A stretch of 64,000 nt of DNA, from the UHGV virus genome UHGV-0180032; one strand, 5' to 3'. Position numbers and translations under genes: made by a program. The notes under the pieces were generated by a model, which was not told where the DNA came from, did not search any database, and was given only the letters and a program-made list of their open reading frames with translations. Source of the DNA: a virus. Each line of letters starts with the position of its first letter. The first letter of the stretch is position 1. Positions 16,689-36,841 of this stretch are shown piece after piece.

Positions 16689-17795
16689 ATGTTAGAAAAA
16701 ACGTTTGAGACAAGCGTTGTCTCGTTCCTCTCCAGACTTCCCATGCTGTTTCGTTCGCGTGCGGAGTCGATGGAGGAATTTAACTCCGTGCTCTATAACG
16801 AGCACATTACCTTAGTCGAACAAAGCCTGCTGGGTTTAGATTACCTTCCGGGAATTCTGGAGAAAATCCAAGTTTTGCTGGCAGGAAACCAACTTACTGC
16901 AATCTCACTGTTAACGGGTGTGCCTGATGTTGATATTATCGGTACGCTGGATCAAGTAAGTACCCGTCGTAGCGCGCTCGATAACGCAGTGCGTAGCGGT
17001 TCACGCTTAGCAGCACTGGCAGTCGGCGAATCTTCCCGCCTAGGATTACCGTCATACGATAAAATCGGCATTGCTGTAGGTGAATCCACCCGTCGTGTCG
17101 CACAGGAATCCAAAGGTTCCGTTACTGGTGGTAAAGCAGACCCGATTAAACAACTGTTCGATCAGGAAGGACTGTCTAACGGGAAAATGTTCTCTGTAAC
17201 GTTTGAACGTGACGGTAATAAAGTCGAACTTCCAATGCGTTTACGTTTGGACGTTAAGTCTCTTCCGACTGAGCAGATTGAAACTCTGATTGCATTCAGC
17301 GACCAGACGAAAACGTTCTGGGAACGTTGGCTGCGTGCACGTGTAGGTGCACTGAGCTATGTTAAAGACATTGCGTTCTGTAACGACCTGGTAGAAGAAT
17401 ACCGTAAGAACCGTTATCGCGATAAGTCAGGTTACTATCGTAAGATGATGGAGAAGAAAAACGGTAACTGGCTGTCTGGCTTGCTGACGCTGGCACCGTC
17501 TATTAATAACGCTTCTTCTGTCATGGTGGTTTCTCAAGACACTATCGACGGTCTGACTGCCCAGCTAGGCGGTGAGTTTGACGATTTCAATATTCGTCAG
17601 CGTGTCTTCAAAGACACCTTAACCGTCTATTACGTGGTAGTGGACACCGCGTGGAACCGCGTTACTATTTATACTCGCGGTCAGAACGGTTCTCAGGAAC
17701 TTGATAAATCCGATTTCAGCAAAGCGAAGTCCGGTAGCGCCGATGTGAACAAAATCATTGAAGCGTATCGCTCTGGCGCACAGCCAGTTCTTTAA
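16689..17795 (+). CDS. hypothetical protein (368 aa)
   Basis: ATG with AGGAAA upstream; divergent from 15358..16662 across a 26-bp gap. Confidence 0.7.
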   Translation: MLEKTFETSVVSFLSRLPMLFRSRAESMEEFNSVLYNEHITLVEQSLLGLDYLPGILEKIQVLLAGNQLTAISLLTGVPDVDIIGTLDQVSTRRSALDNAVRSGSRLAALAVGESSRLGLPSYDKIGIAVGESTRRVAQESKGSVTGGKADPIKQLFDQEGLSNGKMFSVTFERDGNKVELPMRLRLDVKSLPTEQIETLIAFSDQTKTFWERWLRARVGALSYVKDIAFCNDLVEEYRKNRYRDKSGYYRKMMEKKNGNWLSGLLTLAPSINNASSVMVVSQDTIDGLTAQLGGEFDDFNIRQRVFKDTLTVYYVVVDTAWNRVTIYTRGQNGSQELDKSDFSKAKSGSADVNKIIEAYRSGAQPVL

Positions 17796-19319: not shown

Positions 19320-19378
19320 GGGGGCCCCTCATTCTAGGGGCGTGTAATTGGGTTATATAACCAAAGGAAATAAACGAA

Positions 19379-19425
19379 ATGGCAAATTTCGCAAAAACTC
19401 GCGCCGCTCGTGAATCGATGGAAGC
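19379..19425 (+). repeat. 47-nt direct repeat, identical to 20727..20773
   Basis: atggcaaatttcgcaaaaactcgcgccgctcgtgaatcgatggaagc present at both gene starts, then abrupt divergence. Confidence 0.9.
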
Positions 19426-20650
19426 GGCCGATGAAGTAATCGACGGTATCAGCAACGTTGAACCGGCAGAAGAGAACCTGGACGTCCAGCTTGCAGACGT
19501 TGCATCTATCGACGGTCAGCTCGAACAGCTGGAAACCGACGGTGAAACCCTGGCTGCCGATACCGAGCGTACTGAAGACGCTATCGAGCAGGCGGAAGAA
19601 GCCGTTGCTAACGGTGAAGAAATGCCGGAAGAAGCGGTTGCCCTGCACGAAGTGGCACAGGAATCCATCGCACGTCGTTGGAACCTGGAACGCACCAAAC
19701 TGGCTCGCGAATCCTATCGCCGTGGCCGTGGCATGACTGCTGCTGCGCAGGAAGGCTGGAAAGAAACCCTGAAAGGTCTTTACGAGCGCTTCATTCAGTT
19801 CTGTAAAGAAGTAATTGCGAAGATCAAAGACCTGAAACTGAAATATTTCAACGTCGGTAAGACCGCACAGAAACGTGCGAAGAAATATCAGGAAATGATC
19901 CGCAAGCTGGGCAAACAAGATAAAGACAACATTTCTGGCGGCTTTATCACCAAACTGTCCATCGAAGGTAAATTCGATGCTGCTGGCTCTATTGCCATTG
20001 CTAAAGAAGTGACCGCAGGTAAAGTTAAAGGTGCTATCAGTGCACTGGAAAAACAAGCTGGTGAAGCTGTGACTGCTGTTACCAAAGGTGACGATGACGC
20101 ATTCAAAGCGATGCGTGGCGATCAGCCGGTTGAACTGTTTGGTAAAGCAGCGTCTAAACTGCATTCTCTGCCGAACTTTGAAAACGGCGATGCGTCTAAA
20201 CTGCTGGCACTGCCGGGCAACGCTTACGTTCAGGCTGGTACTAAAGAACTGGCTGGCGGCCACAAGTTCACCGCAATTGCGTTCATGAGCACCGGTGACG
20301 CTTCTGACGATAAAGAAGTGGCTACTCCGTCTGTTTCCGAAATGGCTGGCGCGGCATCTGCTCTGGAAGCGATCGGTAAAGGCTTCGAAGCCGTACTGAA
20401 AGATTTCCGTGCTTACGATTCTGAAATCGTGAAACTGCAACAGGCTGCTGAAAAAGCGTCCAACGCGCTGAACAACGAAAAAGACGAAAGTAAGTGGGAA
20501 GGACTGCGTAATGCACGTCAGGCCGCTGATCAGTCTGTGAAGAACTACCAGACCCTGAACCGTGCCGTTAGCTATGTTGCTAACACCGTTATTAGCGGTC
20601 TGAACGGTTACCTGGGTGCTGGTATCGGCGCGTACAAAAAGTCTAAATAA
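19379..20650 (+). CDS. acidic virion-type protein, paralog 1 (423 aa)
   Basis: Host-optimal codons; paralogous to 20727..21989 (identical N-terminus MANFAKTRAARESMEA, shared KLGKQ.KD.ISGGFI and LNGY..AGI.AY.KSK). Confidence 0.8.
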   Translation: MANFAKTRAARESMEAADEVIDGISNVEPAEENLDVQLADVASIDGQLEQLETDGETLAADTERTEDAIEQAEEAVANGEEMPEEAVALHEVAQESIARRWNLERTKLARESYRRGRGMTAAAQEGWKETLKGLYERFIQFCKEVIAKIKDLKLKYFNVGKTAQKRAKKYQEMIRKLGKQDKDNISGGFITKLSIEGKFDAAGSIAIAKEVTAGKVKGAISALEKQAGEAVTAVTKGDDDAFKAMRGDQPVELFGKAASKLHSLPNFENGDASKLLALPGNAYVQAGTKELAGGHKFTAIAFMSTGDASDDKEVATPSVSEMAGAASALEAIGKGFEAVLKDFRAYDSEIVKLQQAAEKASNALNNEKDESKWEGLRNARQAADQSVKNYQTLNRAVSYVANTVISGLNGYLGAGIGAYKKSK

Positions 20651-20726
20651 TTAGACTTACGCTCGTACAGTTCTTGAAATAAATCAATAGGGGAACACGT
20701 CGTTCCCCTTAGAGGAAAAGCTTAAA

Positions 20727-20773
20727 ATGGCAAATTTCGCAAAAACTCGCGCCGCTCGTGAATCGATGGAAGC
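20727..20773 (+). repeat. 47-nt direct repeat, identical to 19379..19425
   Basis: Exact nucleotide identity read directly. Confidence 0.9.
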
Positions 20774-21989
20774 TACTGCTACTGTAGTTCCAGACGGCAT
20801 CGAACTGCCAGCAGAATCTGTTGAAGGTACTCTGGCCGATATCGAACATGATACCAAACCGATCGAAGCCCTGGACGCTGACGCTGAACTGCTGGCCGAA
20901 GACGGCGACGAAACCGATGCTCAGCTGGATGTCCTGGACGAAGCTCAGGCCGCTGCTGACGGTGAAGGTGCCGGTGAAGACGGCGAAGAGCCGATGGACG
21001 CTGAAGAAGATATGCCGGACGACGCAGCGACTGCGCTGGACGTTGCTCAGGAATCTATCCGTTCTCGTTGGAACTTCGAACACCGTTCTTCCGTTGCACA
21101 CGAATCCTACGGTTCTCGTAACCGTCGCCAGGTTGCTCGTGAATCCCTGTGGGAAGACATTAAAGCATTCCTGAAACGTATCTGGGAATGGCTGAAAGAA
21201 CAAGGCCGTAAGATCAAAGATCGTTGGCTGAAATTCTCCAACCAGGGTAAATCCATCCAGGCTCGTTCTAAGAAATACGACGAAGCTATTCGTAAACTGG
21301 GCAAACAGAAGAAAGATGAAATCTCTGGTGGCTTCATCAAGTCTCTGTCTATCGACGGTAAATTCGTTGGTGACGATCTGCCGCGCCTGAAGAATATCCT
21401 GAACCACGTTTCCACCTACTACAGTGGTAACGTTCAGAGCTTCCTGAACAACGGTACGGATATGGTTGGTAGCGTCGTTAAAGGCGATGGCGCTAAAGTT
21501 GAGAAACTGAAAGCAGACTTCGCTGCTCTGGCTAAAGAAGACGTTAGCAAGTTCAAACTTGGTAACATGGCGCTGAAGATGGAGTACGACGAAGAAGGCG
21601 GATTTAGCTCCAGCTATGTGGAAGCTGAAAACCGTGCTGAAACCAACGTGAAAACTCCGTCTGTTAGCGAACTGGCTAAGACCAATGCCTTCTTCAACGA
21701 AGTGGGTAAACAGATCGAGAAGAACGTTCTGGAATATCGTAAGACTGAACAGGCTCGCGAGAAATTCAGCCAGCAGATTGAGAAGCTGCTGAAAGAAATC
21801 GACAGCGTGAAGATCGACGAAAAACCGCAACTGACCGAATCTGTACGTACCGCACGTCGTTACATCAACAGCATTAACCAGGCAGTATCTCTGGGCGAGA
21901 AAGTTATTTCCTCTACTCAGAAACATCTGGCTGGCGGTCTGAACGGCTATATCTCCGCAGGTATCGCTGCTTACGAAAAATCTAAATAA
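20727..21989 (+). CDS. acidic virion-type protein, paralog 2 (420 aa)
   Basis: Paralogous to 19379..20650; optimal codons; strong terminator follows. Confidence 0.8.
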   Translation: MANFAKTRAARESMEATATVVPDGIELPAESVEGTLADIEHDTKPIEALDADAELLAEDGDETDAQLDVLDEAQAAADGEGAGEDGEEPMDAEEDMPDDAATALDVAQESIRSRWNFEHRSSVAHESYGSRNRRQVARESLWEDIKAFLKRIWEWLKEQGRKIKDRWLKFSNQGKSIQARSKKYDEAIRKLGKQKKDEISGGFIKSLSIDGKFVGDDLPRLKNILNHVSTYYSGNVQSFLNNGTDMVGSVVKGDGAKVEKLKADFAALAKEDVSKFKLGNMALKMEYDEEGGFSSSYVEAENRAETNVKTPSVSELAKTNAFFNEVGKQIEKNVLEYRKTEQAREKFSQQIEKLLKEIDSVKIDEKPQLTESVRTARRYINSINQAVSLGEKVISSTQKHLAGGLNGYISAGIAAYEKSK

Positions 21990-22007
21990 TCTCTGATTGT
22001 TTAGTAA

Positions 22008-22054
22008 GAGAACCACCCTGTAATGGGGTGGTTCTCCCTTTTCTTTTTTTTTTC
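22008..22054 (+). terminator. rho-independent terminator
   Basis: stem gagaaccaccc/ggggtggttctc followed by an ~18-nt T-run. Confidence 0.75.
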
Positions 22055-22071
22055 GCATTAAAAATAATCTT

Positions 22072-22144: not shown

Positions 22145-22786
22145 ATGACACGTTACAATTTAGCTGACTTCTGCGATTGTGCCTTTTCTGTTGAAGGTGA
22201 CAAACTTGTAATGGCTGCGCCAAACGCAAGAGTCTTATCGTTGTATCAAGCCGAAGTTATTGCAATTTCGATTTGGTTAGCAAGGGCTATAGACGGCGGC
22301 TGTAAGGACCTTGATAAAGAAGTGTTGAAAGTCGGTCGTCGTGAATTTGTGTATAAAGCAGAAATCCAGAGCCGTTTACCGCAGACCTTTTTAAGCAACT
22401 TGCTTAAAGATGTCAACACCCCAGTTGTCAGCCGAACATTTGACGGGGTGAAATACTACTCTTTTGAAGATTCGCACATTGCTATCTGTGAAGGCGAGAA
22501 TAAGTTTTTTACGACCGTTATCTACTTTCGTATTGCCGAACCTACGAAAGAAGAACTGGTTTGCAACACTGCGAACGATGTGGCCGTGATGCGTATGGAC
22601 GATATCACCAGTGCACTATCTGGATTAAATGACATACCGCGTATTGTGGAGCGAGTCTTGGAAGGAGACGATTACTTTAAGCTGCTTCCGCTGGTAGCAA
22701 GCGAAGAAACAGAACAGGAAAGCGCTTTCATTCAGGTTAACCTTACCGCTGCGCAGGCGGTAGATCGTTTCTTCGAAGCTTTATAA
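22145..22786 (+). CDS. hypothetical protein (213 aa)
   Basis: ATG with AGGAGAA upstream; own promoter motif and terminator. Confidence 0.7.
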   Translation: MTRYNLADFCDCAFSVEGDKLVMAAPNARVLSLYQAEVIAISIWLARAIDGGCKDLDKEVLKVGRREFVYKAEIQSRLPQTFLSNLLKDVNTPVVSRTFDGVKYYSFEDSHIAICEGENKFFTTVIYFRIAEPTKEELVCNTANDVAVMRMDDITSALSGLNDIPRIVERVLEGDDYFKLLPLVASEETEQESAFIQVNLTAAQAVDRFFEAL

Positions 22787-34555: not shown

Positions 34556-36841
34556 ATGAAAGATACCCGAATCTCTAATTTAGAGAAACTCGTAGAAGCC
34601 GGTACTAGTCTGGCCCAAAACGTCATCGGCAACAACACCGCCAGCGAAATGTGGAATACGATTGTTGCAGGCGAGTCCGTACGCAGCAACGCAAAAGTGT
34701 TTGGCGCTCTGCGTGACGAAGCATCACAGCACTATGCCAACGCTTTTGGTGGCAAGAAAATGTCTCATGCTGCGACTGTCGCCTCCGCAATGATTCTGGG
34801 CGCAGCTAACCACGGTAAAGACCTGCAAGAACGTGTTGCCCAGGAATACGCTAAGCCGGAATTCCACACCAAGTATAACCTGGATATTGGTATCCCTGGT
34901 GCGCAAGGTGGTGACTGGGGTCGTGAGCGCATGGTTGTTGCTCAGGAATACTACAGCAACAAAGACTACGACAAAAACCTGGGCCTGACCTGGACCCTGA
35001 ACGTACGTGCTCTGGAAACTCAGTCCAAGTTTGCTGAAACACTGTTCCCGACCATTACCGTTGACACCAACGATGTTGGTATTACCGTACGTACTAAAGT
35101 GACTACCGTTTCTCGCGGTATCATGCACGCGCTGCTGAGCAAAGACGTGGTTGAAGACCATCGTCGTCCGCTGCACAACGCACTGACTGACCACACCGTT
35201 CTCCAGGACGAAGCGATCAACATCGTTCCTTACGTAATGGAAACCGGTGAAAACCAGGAATACTTCGTAAGCGAAGAACTGGTTCCGAACGAAACCGTTC
35301 GCCTGGGTCGTGTACCTCCGTATCCGACTAACTACCTGAGCTTTGCAAACGACACGCTGAACCTGTTCCAGCTGTCTGCGCATCCGGGTATCGTTCAGGA
35401 AGGTTACGATGAAACTGATGAAATCGCACCGGGTTGTGCTCTGGGCAGCCTGCTGATTTCTGTACGTAAACCGACCGAAGAAGCGAAAGCGGGTAAATTC
35501 ATCAAACTGCACGTTCGTGACATGCAGTTCGCAACCTTCCAGCGTCCTGCTGAAGGTGACGGCCGTGAACTGGTTCTGCAATTCCGTCGTACCGCGTTCT
35601 CTCTGAATGCGAAAACTACTGACTGGACTGGTGCAGCTATTCCGGCTCTGCAAGCACTGGGTCAGAACTCCTACACCCTGCGCTACGTTATCACCATCAC
35701 CATGTCCCTGTTCACCAGCGGCCAGTTCGGTGGTAAAGTAGACATTTCCGGCCACAAACTGGAAATCGAAGGTCTGTACGATGCAACTGGTAACAAAGTT
35801 GATACCAAGTCTGGCACCGGTAAAGTTATCCTGGACGGCCTGAAACTCGAACTGATGGGCTGGCGCTTCGATGGTACTCGTACCAACGAAAACCGTCGTT
35901 CCCAGGGTCTGCTGCTTGACCCAATTTGGGAACAGGAAAACTACAAACTGCAATACGGTTCTCCGATTCTGACCAAGTCTCCGGTTGGTGTTGAATACGA
36001 CGACACTGAACGTCTGGACGACCTGATCTCTGCGGTGAACATCCGTAACGAACAGCTGGCGATTACTCAGACGCTGTCTTACACCGAAGCAGTACGTAAC
36101 GCAGCCGCTGCGATGATCACTCCGTGGGACAAACCGGCTATTCGTGGTCTGGGCCGTCACTGGGTTGCTCCGTGGTTCAAAGAGTCTGACTACAAAGTCG
36201 ATGAAGTTGTTCAGTCTCTGGATACCAAAGAAGCGCTGATCAACGCTCGTCAGGGTCTGTTGCAGCGTATCGGTAGCCAGGTAACTCAGGCTATCCAGGA
36301 TTCTCGTTTCATTCCTGCACTGCGCCTGCTGACCGCTGATCCGGACATTCTGCCGAAAGTTATCATCGCAACTGACGAACCGACTGCATCTATGCTGCTG
36401 CTGGTTCAGGGCGACCAACGTCTGCTGGGCGACCGTTATGAATACGAAGTCGTTACCACCAACGATGACCGCTGGCGTATCTACAACGCAGCTGACGATT
36501 CCTGGACTCGTCGTCTGCAATGGTTCCTGAAAGTTCCGACTGCGGACGATGGTTCCTACTGCGTACTGAACTGGGGTAACCACTTCTGGTCTCCGATCAT
36601 GGTTACCAACATCAACATCCAGCGTAACGGTTCTACCTCTAAAGAACTGGCTGTACAGCCGCGTAACGCGCATATCTGCCACTGCCCGATCACTGGTCTG
36701 ATTTGGGTTAAAGGCATCACCAAACTGGTTGAAGAAAAACTGGCTTACAACGTTTCTGTAGAACAGAACGGCCAGAAACAAACCGAAGGTGGTGTAGCAG
36801 GTAATGTTGCTGGCGACGGTAAAGACAAAGCTGGTAAATAA
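34556..36841 (+). CDS. major capsid protein candidate (761 aa, phiKZ-like size class)
   Basis: Very strong host-optimal codon bias (ctg, cgt, ggt, acc, aaa); length matches jumbo-phage major capsid proteins; strong terminator follows; product assignment is by size and expression signature only. Confidence 0.55.
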   Translation: MKDTRISNLEKLVEAGTSLAQNVIGNNTASEMWNTIVAGESVRSNAKVFGALRDEASQHYANAFGGKKMSHAATVASAMILGAANHGKDLQERVAQEYAKPEFHTKYNLDIGIPGAQGGDWGRERMVVAQEYYSNKDYDKNLGLTWTLNVRALETQSKFAETLFPTITVDTNDVGITVRTKVTTVSRGIMHALLSKDVVEDHRRPLHNALTDHTVLQDEAINIVPYVMETGENQEYFVSEELVPNETVRLGRVPPYPTNYLSFANDTLNLFQLSAHPGIVQEGYDETDEIAPGCALGSLLISVRKPTEEAKAGKFIKLHVRDMQFATFQRPAEGDGRELVLQFRRTAFSLNAKTTDWTGAAIPALQALGQNSYTLRYVITITMSLFTSGQFGGKVDISGHKLEIEGLYDATGNKVDTKSGTGKVILDGLKLELMGWRFDGTRTNENRRSQGLLLDPIWEQENYKLQYGSPILTKSPVGVEYDDTERLDDLISAVNIRNEQLAITQTLSYTEAVRNAAAAMITPWDKPAIRGLGRHWVAPWFKESDYKVDEVVQSLDTKEALINARQGLLQRIGSQVTQAIQDSRFIPALRLLTADPDILPKVIIATDEPTASMLLLVQGDQRLLGDRYEYEVVTTNDDRWRIYNAADDSWTRRLQWFLKVPTADDGSYCVLNWGNHFWSPIMVTNINIQRNGSTSKELAVQPRNAHICHCPITGLIWVKGITKLVEEKLAYNVSVEQNGQKQTEGGVAGNVAGDGKDKAGK

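Follow-up and report, generated by a model that had tools for sequence, protein, structure and literature searches.

A short, recent gene conversion between tandem internal head protein genes of an SPN3US-like jumbo phage

The 64,000-nucleotide (nt) stretch of virus genome UHGV-0180032 analysed here (the window) comes from an SPN3US-like jumbo phage and carries two adjacent genes, which we call A (19379..20650, + strand; 423 amino acids (aa), 45.6 kDa) and B (20727..21989, + strand; 420 aa, 46.6 kDa). We conclude, with a probability of roughly 0.87, that A and B encode the two major internal head ('ejection') proteins, orthologous to gp53 and gp54 of Salmonella phage SPN3US, and that the identity of their first 47 nt arose by conversion of B with A as the donor. 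The basic biology of the pair, identical N-termini included, has already been published for the SPN3US orthologs. New here are corrected mature N-termini, a protease site within the N-terminal leader, a recent and still polymorphic micro-conversion, and signs that such events recur. We found no prior report of gene conversion in these genes in the open-access literature.

Genes A and B are orthologs of SPN3US gp53 and gp54

BLASTP aligned the two proteins at 36% aa identity (E 5e-56) through a common N-terminus, an IRKLGKQ.KD.ISGGFI block and a GLNGY..AGI.AY.KSK C-terminus, as expected of the tandem paralogs that an earlier note on this DNA had taken them for. Both proteins match the PF12699 (phiKZ_IP) family over model positions 2-387 of 387, gene A with E 1.3e-73 (248.9 bits) and gene B with E 6.3e-59 (200.6 bits), the curated gathering cut-off of the family being 27 bits. 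Both also match phrog_2497, 'internal head protein' (gene A, E 4e-146). The gene A protein is 69% identical to SPN3US gp53, and the gene order of the window is that of annotated SPN3US and of the Erwinia phage Asesino: the pair sits after homologs of gp50-52 and ahead of the DHFR region, as in SPN3US. On the strength of this gene order, A and B are orthologs of gp53 and gp54, respectively. The assignment of gene A as a PF12699 internal head/ejection protein precursor draws on its open reading frame (ORF), Pfam, PHROG and synteny, and that of gene B on its ORF, Pfam and tblastn. Lengths agree as well (423 and 420 aa here, 425 and 419 aa in SPN3US), as does the tandem layout. When 64 phage records of Seoulvirus, Erskinevirus, Machinavirus, Wellingtonvirus and Derbicusvirus were searched by tblastn, two adjacent copies were present in 62, indicating that the duplication is old. 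Unlike these similarities, the lineage itself is different, since the nearest deposited phage shares only ~74-77% nt identity with the window. The window lies within IMG/VR contig UViG_3300045988_095954. The gene B protein is identical to protein P0070, encoded on ~225 kb contigs in Salmonella assemblies.

In SPN3US, gp53 and gp54 constitute 'Paralog family A' among the 'high abundance E proteins', both belong to PF12699, and each is present in more than 600 copies per head (PMC5694885). The prohead protease gp245 cuts both C-terminal to A-X-E motifs (PMC5694885, PMC10052503), and uncleaved gp53 and gp54 together make up a T=1 inner shell in protease-deficient capsids (PMC7552025). The PF12699 matches and the synteny with these gp245-processed proteins support the earlier proposal that A and B are probably processed head proteins, and the pair can be confidently annotated as gp53/gp54-type major internal head (ejection) proteins.

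The 5' end of gene B was copied from gene A

Counted from the ATG, A and B agree at each of their first 47 nt and differ at nt 48, and upstream of the ATG only 2 nt match. Codon-aware alignment gives 51% nt identity between the genes overall and 48% over nt 48-107, and the next-longest in-register identical run is just 13 nt, so that the identity ends abruptly, as had been noticed from the window itself. To place the tract, close relatives of the window were recovered from IMG/VR and other assemblies. The 47-nt start of gene A (19379..19425, + strand; leader MANFAKTRAARESMEA), which is the donor copy, is identical in the window and in relatives L020, L021, L026, L027, L028, L029 and L030, and L022 carries a single synonymous change. 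Relatives L020, L021, L022, L029 and L030 have this A-type start on gene A, and their gene B starts ATGGCGAATTTCTACAAAAACAAAATTGCTCGTGAGTCTATGGAGTCT, encoding the peptide MANFYKNKIARESMES. The B leader of these relatives differs from the A leader at 16 positions in nt 6-46, of which 4 are synonymous, and at six residues (YKNKI..S versus AKTRA..A). The window's gene B has A's base at 16/16 of these sites and returns to B-type sequence from nt 48. Its flanks are B-type on both sides, 30 nt upstream and 150 nt downstream being nearly the same across these genomes. The recipient tract lies at 20727..20773 (+ strand), with informative sites at nt 6-46 and a maximum extent of -2 to +47. The window's B leader thus arose recently, when 41-49 nt of A were copied non-reciprocally into B, by gene conversion or template switch, in place of the ancestral MANFYKNKIARESMES. 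Recombination, heteroduplex patch repair and copy-choice are candidates for the molecular route.

Could protein conservation and strong codon bias have produced the identity with no DNA copied? Elsewhere in the A/B alignment 63% of identical residues share a codon, and the excess in the leader (13/14 same codons) reaches only P = 0.015, which makes the 47-nt identity less striking when the window sequence is considered alone. The relatives decide the matter: their B leader differs at the six residues given above, the window carries the A base at all 16 differing sites, synonymous ones included, with abrupt limits on either side, and 16 parallel substitutions in 41 nt against just 8 in the adjacent 150 nt are not credible. 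The chance that coincidence explains the tract is practically nil.

Selection on the translation-initiation region had been offered earlier as an alternative to gene conversion. It would act on the nucleotides or the mRNA and preserve a 5' coding sequence optimal for expressing both genes very highly. Both genes are strongly codon-optimised and probably very highly expressed, and the identity begins almost exactly at the ATG, as such selection would have it. But 17 related phages keep the leader peptide with 4-15 nt differences in the first 45 nt, and when same-codon use was tested in 18 phages, the leader stood at background in all but the window (P 0.09-0.95 in the relatives). The peptide is conserved in other phages and its DNA is not, so that no general nucleotide-level constraint acts on the initiation region. 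Moreover, the closest relatives have 16 A/B differences there and are evidently viable, and the upstream regions of A and B, Shine-Dalgarno context included, are entirely different. We give this explanation only a very slim chance; of the two alternatives, conversion is upheld by the 16/16 sites and the relatives.

The direction of transfer follows from the distribution of alleles: every gene A seen in the window's clade, comprising the relatives and the four closest A-type proteins, has AKTRA, B is polymorphic, and YKNKI is also carried by the divergent B of L027, in support of its being the ancestral B state. The same tract with the same boundary is present in L026, an independent ENA metagenome contig, even though the 3' half of its gene B is a divergent allele. 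This contig and dozens of isolate assemblies with the same tract rule out an assembly artefact. Among 54 B-type proteins of the clade, from many assemblies, both leader alleles occur, in all four combinations with the C-terminal alleles. Converted and ancestral B alleles therefore now coexist in the phage population, and the simplest reading of these combinations would be one conversion event followed by spread through ordinary recombination.

These same data bear on whether a co-infecting relative, instead of the resident gene A, supplied the A-type leader of B, through allele import or ectopic recombination between the two genomes. The locus is mosaic: L026 agrees with the window in gene A and in the 5' half of gene B and is divergent in the 3' half of B (synonymous divergence, dS, 0.55-0.82 versus 0.03-0.1), and the four allele combinations likewise testify to exchange. 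On the other hand, the donor sequence is the 5' end of a gene A and is 47/47 nt identical to the resident copy, so that import would still amount to non-reciprocal A-to-B transfer, and in the collections searched this leader was found on B in no phage outside the clade. Intragenomic and intergenomic routes would look alike at the sequence level, and we regard import as unlikely. By either route, A-to-B conversion makes the tract a clean natural case of very short non-reciprocal transfer between diverged tandem phage paralogs, in which donor, recipient, boundaries and the unconverted allele are all visible.

Leader residues co-vary between the paralogs in other lineages

Motifs were mapped in an alignment of 36 proteins from 18 phages, and leader invariance was assessed in 51 homologs. 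The leader pattern M(A)NF-x5-ARES-x-E is present on both paralogs in 36/36 sequences. Asn3, Phe4, Ala10, Glu12 and Ser13 are invariant in the 51 homologs, and position 11 is Arg in at least 90% of them and Gln in a few. A leader of the A/B type was sought in the other ORFs of the window and found in none. The remaining leader residues vary among phages and co-vary within genomes, the A/B pairs reading VKSKL/VKSKL in SPN3US, AQLKI/AQLKI in SNUABM_9 and AQRKV/AQRKV in Caitlin. Likewise, in the Wellington and Derbicus groups neither paralog has Ala2. Over the five variable residues, A and B of the same genome agree at 51-55 of 70 positions, compared with 28.6-28.9 ± ~4 when the B proteins are shuffled among genomes.

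The identical 15-residue N-termini of SPN3US gp53 and gp54 were noted in 2017 and likened to the capsid targeting sequences (CTS) of phage T4 (Ali et al. 2017, PMC5694885). The two SPN3US leaders encode the same peptide with 6 synonymous differences, whereas the window leaders have the same DNA as a result of the recent conversion. In SPN3US, four derived non-synonymous changes are present in both copies (GTA AAA AGT .. CTC) and are flanked by paralog-specific synonymous states, which makes a strong case that a short conversion took place in this phage as well. A further event is probable in pEa_SNUABM_9: its gene A differs from that of SNUABM_4 at four positions in nt 9-36, all in the state of a B copy (of SNUABM_9 or SNUABM_4), and the CTT codon among these changes occurs only in the two SNUABM_9 copies.

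Recurrent small transfers of this kind would explain why the leaders co-vary within a genome, and the co-variation hints at a single partner with which both leaders interact, for example the protease or a site of targeting or docking. It is possible, although the odds are somewhat against it, that the 12-residue leader is a recognition signal for one such partner and that recurrent micro-conversion of ~25-50 nt keeps the 5' ends matched while the rest of the proteins stands at 36% identity. If true, a signal peptide within a structural module of a phage would be evolving in concert, with a live polymorphism showing the process under way, and the leader would lend itself to the packaging of foreign proteins into jumbo-phage heads. 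The variable positions tolerate YKNKI or AKTRA, and M-A-N-F and A-R-E-S are fixed; this tolerance narrows what a targeting or protease-docking signal could be.

Predicted protease sites and maturation of the precursors

By homology, each protein would begin with a 12-residue leader (M-A-N-F-x-[KQ]-x-x-x-A-R-E) whose last three residues form an A-X-E protease site. A strongly acidic pro-region of ~110-125 residues, helical and with further A-X-E sites, would follow, and then a basic, helix-rich mature domain of ~31-32 kDa. The sites mapped in SPN3US are ARE-12, AQE-95 and AQE-125 (maturation) of gp53 and AQE-124 and ARE-137 (maturation) of gp54 (PMC10052503, Table 2), and the window motifs occupy the same alignment columns.

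In gene A, cleavage at ARE-12 (19406..19414, + strand) is predicted to remove the leader and AQE-95 (19655..19663, +) to be cut within the pro-region; both sites are cleaved in gp53 (PMC10052503, Table 2). ARE-111 (19703..19711, +) is a candidate internal site, unmapped in gp53, whose gp54 homolog AQE-124 is cleaved in SPN3US. AQE-125 (19745..19753, +) is the predicted maturation site, before GWKETLK, with position and flanks as in gp53, where AQE-125 followed by GWKETLKDLFER was mapped by mass spectrometry (PMC10052503).

In gene B, the leader site ARE-12 (20754..20762, +) is proposed from homology, the corresponding gp54 site not having been mapped experimentally, and AQE-109 (21045..21053, +) is a candidate internal site homologous to gp53 AQE-95 that went undetected in gp54 by mass spectrometry. 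AHE-126 (21096..21104, +) would by homology be another internal site, aligning with gp54 AQE-124/SYGAR, for which cleavage was seen after chymotrypsin digestion (PMC10052503). The predicted maturation site is ARE-139 (21135..21143, +), before SLWEDIK, aligning with gp54 ARE-137/SLWDDIK (PMC10052503).

All four internal-motif columns keep A/G-X-E followed by Ser (Ser or Ala in one column) in 36/36 sequences, so that alignment with homologs of related phages, proposed earlier as a check, came out in favor of the motifs. The AQE-95/AQE-109 column reads VA(Q/G)ESIR.RW throughout, with AGES in the A copies of the CR5/Derbicus group, and the ARE-111/AHE-126 column conserves A(R/Q/H)E(S/A)(Y/F). The earlier note had singled out AQES and A(R/H)ESY in the two proteins as possible cleavage sites. 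These align with mapped SPN3US sites, and two of the four match cuts detected there (gp53 AQE-95 and gp54 AQE-124), but they fall within the pro-region, and each mature protein is predicted to start after the next motif along. The ARE-12 site within the identical leader was overlooked.

Mature A is predicted to comprise residues 126-423 (31.9 kDa, isoelectric point (pI) 9.3, net charge +10) and mature B residues 140-420 (31.6 kDa, pI 9.4, net charge +11). The N-terminal regions are acidic (pI 4.1-4.25, 25-27% Asp plus Glu), with a pro-region net charge of -19 in A and -27 in B. An earlier description of A and B as acidic proteins accordingly holds for their N-terminal regions but not for the whole proteins, which are only mildly acidic (pI 5.1-5.3), nor for the predicted mature parts, which are basic. 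The predicted mature N-termini, G126 in A and S140 in B, should be of use for proteomics and cryo-EM of this phage lineage. The leader pattern with ARE-12, the mapped A-X-E columns, the mature starts GWKETLK and SLW(E/D)DIK, and the division into acidic pro-region and basic mature part are all as in SPN3US. One difference is that P2 of the internal site is His (AHE-126) here and Gln in SPN3US.

The major capsid protein of the window (34556..36841, + strand; phrog_3231, E 5e-279) has a conserved maturation motif, AQE-131 followed by YYSNKDYDKNLGLTWTLNV, and a second motif, AQE-97. The window site AQE-131/YYSNK corresponds to SPN3US ATE-130/YYTNK, and this retained A-X-E maturation site argues for the same protease specificity in the window phage. 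The gp50 homolog (16689..17795, + strand) has a 5-residue deletion near the SPN3US site annotated as ATE-127 and reads RRVAQE/SKG there; the motif is retained but displaced, which illustrates how a cleavage site can drift.

Homology with SPN3US and phiKZ suggests the following pathway. The precursors would be produced in very large amounts late in infection and would co-assemble with the major capsid protein into the inner shell of the prohead. The prohead protease would then cleave after Glu at ARE-12, AQE-95/109 and A(R/H)E-111/126, with the last cuts at AQE-125 in the gene A protein and ARE-139 in the gene B protein. The acidic fragments would exit the head, or some would stay on the capsid wall, and the basic mature domains would remain associated with the packaged DNA and accompany it into the cell.

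The PF12699 paralogs of phiKZ are indeed injected along with DNA (bioRxiv 10.1101/2024.03.24.586471). Like A and B, phiKZ gp93, gp95, gp97 and gp162 are multi-copy PF12699 paralogs with a helix-rich C-terminal domain; they are injected with DNA (PMC5694885, PMC11297242), and the phiKZ inner-body proteins undergo N-terminal processing after Glu by the S80 prohead protease, with a cut ~13 residues in (SLE-13 in gp93). phiKZ differs in having 5-8 paralogs against two in the window phage and in its cleavage motif, S/A/G-X-E against A-X-E in SPN3US, and it is too distant from the window proteins for direct sequence detection. Residues 14-84 of gp93, starting right after the SLE-13 cut, stay bound to the inner wall of the capsid (PMC11297242). 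By analogy, residues 13-95 of the window proteins may bind the capsid wall, and a 'removable' acidic propeptide may be too simple a description.

T4 offers a looser parallel. IPI-III and Alt are abundant basic internal proteins ejected with DNA, and the CTS is a short conserved N-terminal leader, common to proteins that otherwise diverge, which the prohead protease cuts off after Glu. The acidic pro-region of ~110-125 residues after the leader is absent in T4, and the T4 internal-protein family (IPI, IPII, IPIII, Alt) was not among the Pfam or PHROG matches of A and B. We treat the resemblance to the CTS as functional analogy, not sequence homology, and the targeting role of the leader as putative.

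Several points weigh against our overall interpretation. Family membership, orthology, motif positions, the charge split, codon bias and the conversion event come directly from the present comparisons, whereas virion presence, copy number, cleavage and ejection are extrapolated from homology (69% to gp53; 36% between the paralogs), and AHE-126, with His at P2, is a predicted site without direct precedent in experiments. A gene for the gp245/gp175-type (MEROPS S80) prohead protease is absent from the 64-kb window; by SPN3US synteny it should lie outside, and the parent contig was not searched. Regarding the tract itself, the A-to-B direction is parsimonious and lacks formal proof, and junction microhomology is tiny (at most 7 nt at the 5' side and ~1 nt at the 3' side). 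The further conversions in other lineages rest on few sites, where parallel selection by a shared partner could partly yield the same pattern, and a targeting or docking role for the leader is argued by analogy.

Codon optimality and transcriptional context

The frequency of optimal codons (Fop), computed with the E. coli optimal-codon set, is 0.79 for A, 0.81 for B and 0.83 for the major capsid protein, the highest in the window, compared with a mean of 0.53 ± 0.08 for 60 window ORFs. A and B thus lie ~3 standard deviations over the window mean and are outranked by the capsid protein alone, in keeping with the host-optimal codons described for them previously. This top trio parallels the three most abundant head proteins of SPN3US. 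With codon optimality as a proxy, A and B may be present in high copy in the head of the window phage.

A strong intrinsic terminator (22008..22046, + strand), a 13-bp stem followed by a T-run (-22.6 kcal/mol, z = -4.3), closes the two-gene unit. Between the genes, a GC-rich hairpin, AGGGGAAC-ACGTC-GTTCCCCT (20689..20709, + strand), ends 1 nt ahead of the invariant AGAGGA Shine-Dalgarno sequence of gene B (20711-20716). It is the consensus fold of 15 phages, with 7 pairs of which 4 have compensatory double changes, and the window sequence folds in the same way. Its loop sequence differs among close relatives and is linked to the leader allele. A U-tract was looked for 3' of the hairpin on the + strand and none was found. 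The hairpin could be an mRNA processing or stability element, or an attenuator of a phage RNA polymerase.

Upstream of gene A, TATAACC(A/T)AA is conserved. It was considered as a common late-promoter motif, but the window has a single occurrence of it, and the capsid gene is not preceded by one, so that no conclusion is drawn. A scan of the window for sigma-70 promoters returned nothing relevant, which is expected of a phage that uses its own RNA polymerases.

Long ORFs lie antisense to both genes, at 19334..20440 (- strand, 368 aa) opposite A and at 20709..22058 (- strand, 449 aa) opposite B, the second exceeding gene B in length. Both appear to be side effects of the extreme codon bias on the sense strand, and a gene caller that relies on length could be misled by them.

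Selection and variation along gene B

The ratio of non-synonymous to synonymous substitution rates (dN/dS) in gene B is 0.01-0.09 in the pro-region, compared with 0.18-0.46 in the mature C-terminal parts. The stronger purifying selection on the pro-region is compatible with a structural role during assembly and counts against a merely disposable tag. The central mature part of gene B (21340..21720, residues ~206-330) is hypervariable in relatives L020-L030, with a mean pairwise identity of 76% and a minimum of 48%, compared with 98% for the pro-region; gene A has no comparable hypervariable center. L026 switches alleles in gene B between residues ~140 and 205. Positive selection on the center of gene B is unsupported, since dN/dS is 0.26-0.46 there with high dS (0.7-1.07). 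The center looks like a mosaic of old alleles combined with relaxed constraint.

Predicted structure of the gene A protein

An AlphaFold2 model of the gene A protein (predicted local distance difference test score, pLDDT, 81.6; predicted template modeling score, pTM, 0.81) has helices at residues 34-77 and 84-100, in the pro-region, and at 119-175, 319-366 and 371-417, with a small beta region at 274-304. There were 104 BFVD matches at E ≤ 1e-3, and the named ones are jumbo-phage virion or internal head proteins, for example of 201phi2-1, PhiPA3, Ea35-70 and PhiEaH1. A sequence search for a relative of solved structure gave 0 matches with phmmer and weak ones only with a clade profile, and neither method matched the phiKZ chains in the PDB. 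Foldseek against the PDB returned nothing significant, the best matches being ClyA-family toxins (E 0.2-2, probability <0.1, template modeling (TM) score ≤0.23).

These matches raise the idea that A and B are mainly membrane-active effectors, either pore-formers like ClyA and MakA or remodellers like ESCRT-III, that build or open the early infection vesicle after ejection. The top PDB matches are SmhA, MakA/B, HblL1 and ClyA, the family profile matches Snf7 (E 0.005), and the injected PF12699 paralogs of phiKZ co-localise with the lipid compartment (bioRxiv 10.1101/2024.03.24.586471). The Foldseek scores, however, fall short of significance, the Snf7 match lies in the acidic, cleaved pro-region, outside the ejected domain, and neither protein has a hydrophobic segment (maximum Kyte-Doolittle 19-residue mean 0.99 for A and 0.44 for B). 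We treat the Snf7 match as probable compositional or coiled-coil similarity. Given its location and the lack of a hydrophobic segment, we did not adopt the effector idea, which we judge to be quite improbable.

Neighboring sequence and occurrence of the lineage

An ORF directly past the terminator (22145..22786, + strand, 213 aa) matches nothing in Pfam or PHROG. Nowhere else do the window and its close relatives diverge as much as in this ORF, and a 59-aa ORF stands in its place in L029 and L030.

In records of Salmonella phages SPFM5-SPFM20, 'hypothetical proteins' of ~400 aa (P0110-P0116) are scrambled, with pieces of the gp53 C-terminus placed N-terminally and pieces of its N-terminus placed C-terminally. 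They look like annotation or assembly oddities of those records.

The lineage of the window phage is seen as ~220-228 kb contigs in many NCBI/ENA assemblies labelled Salmonella enterica, E. coli, Shigella sonnei and S. flexneri (proteins P0054-P0109). Judging from this occurrence, clinical isolate cultures seem often to carry, or to be contaminated with, an SPN3US-like jumbo phage for which the phage collection contains no close cultured representative.

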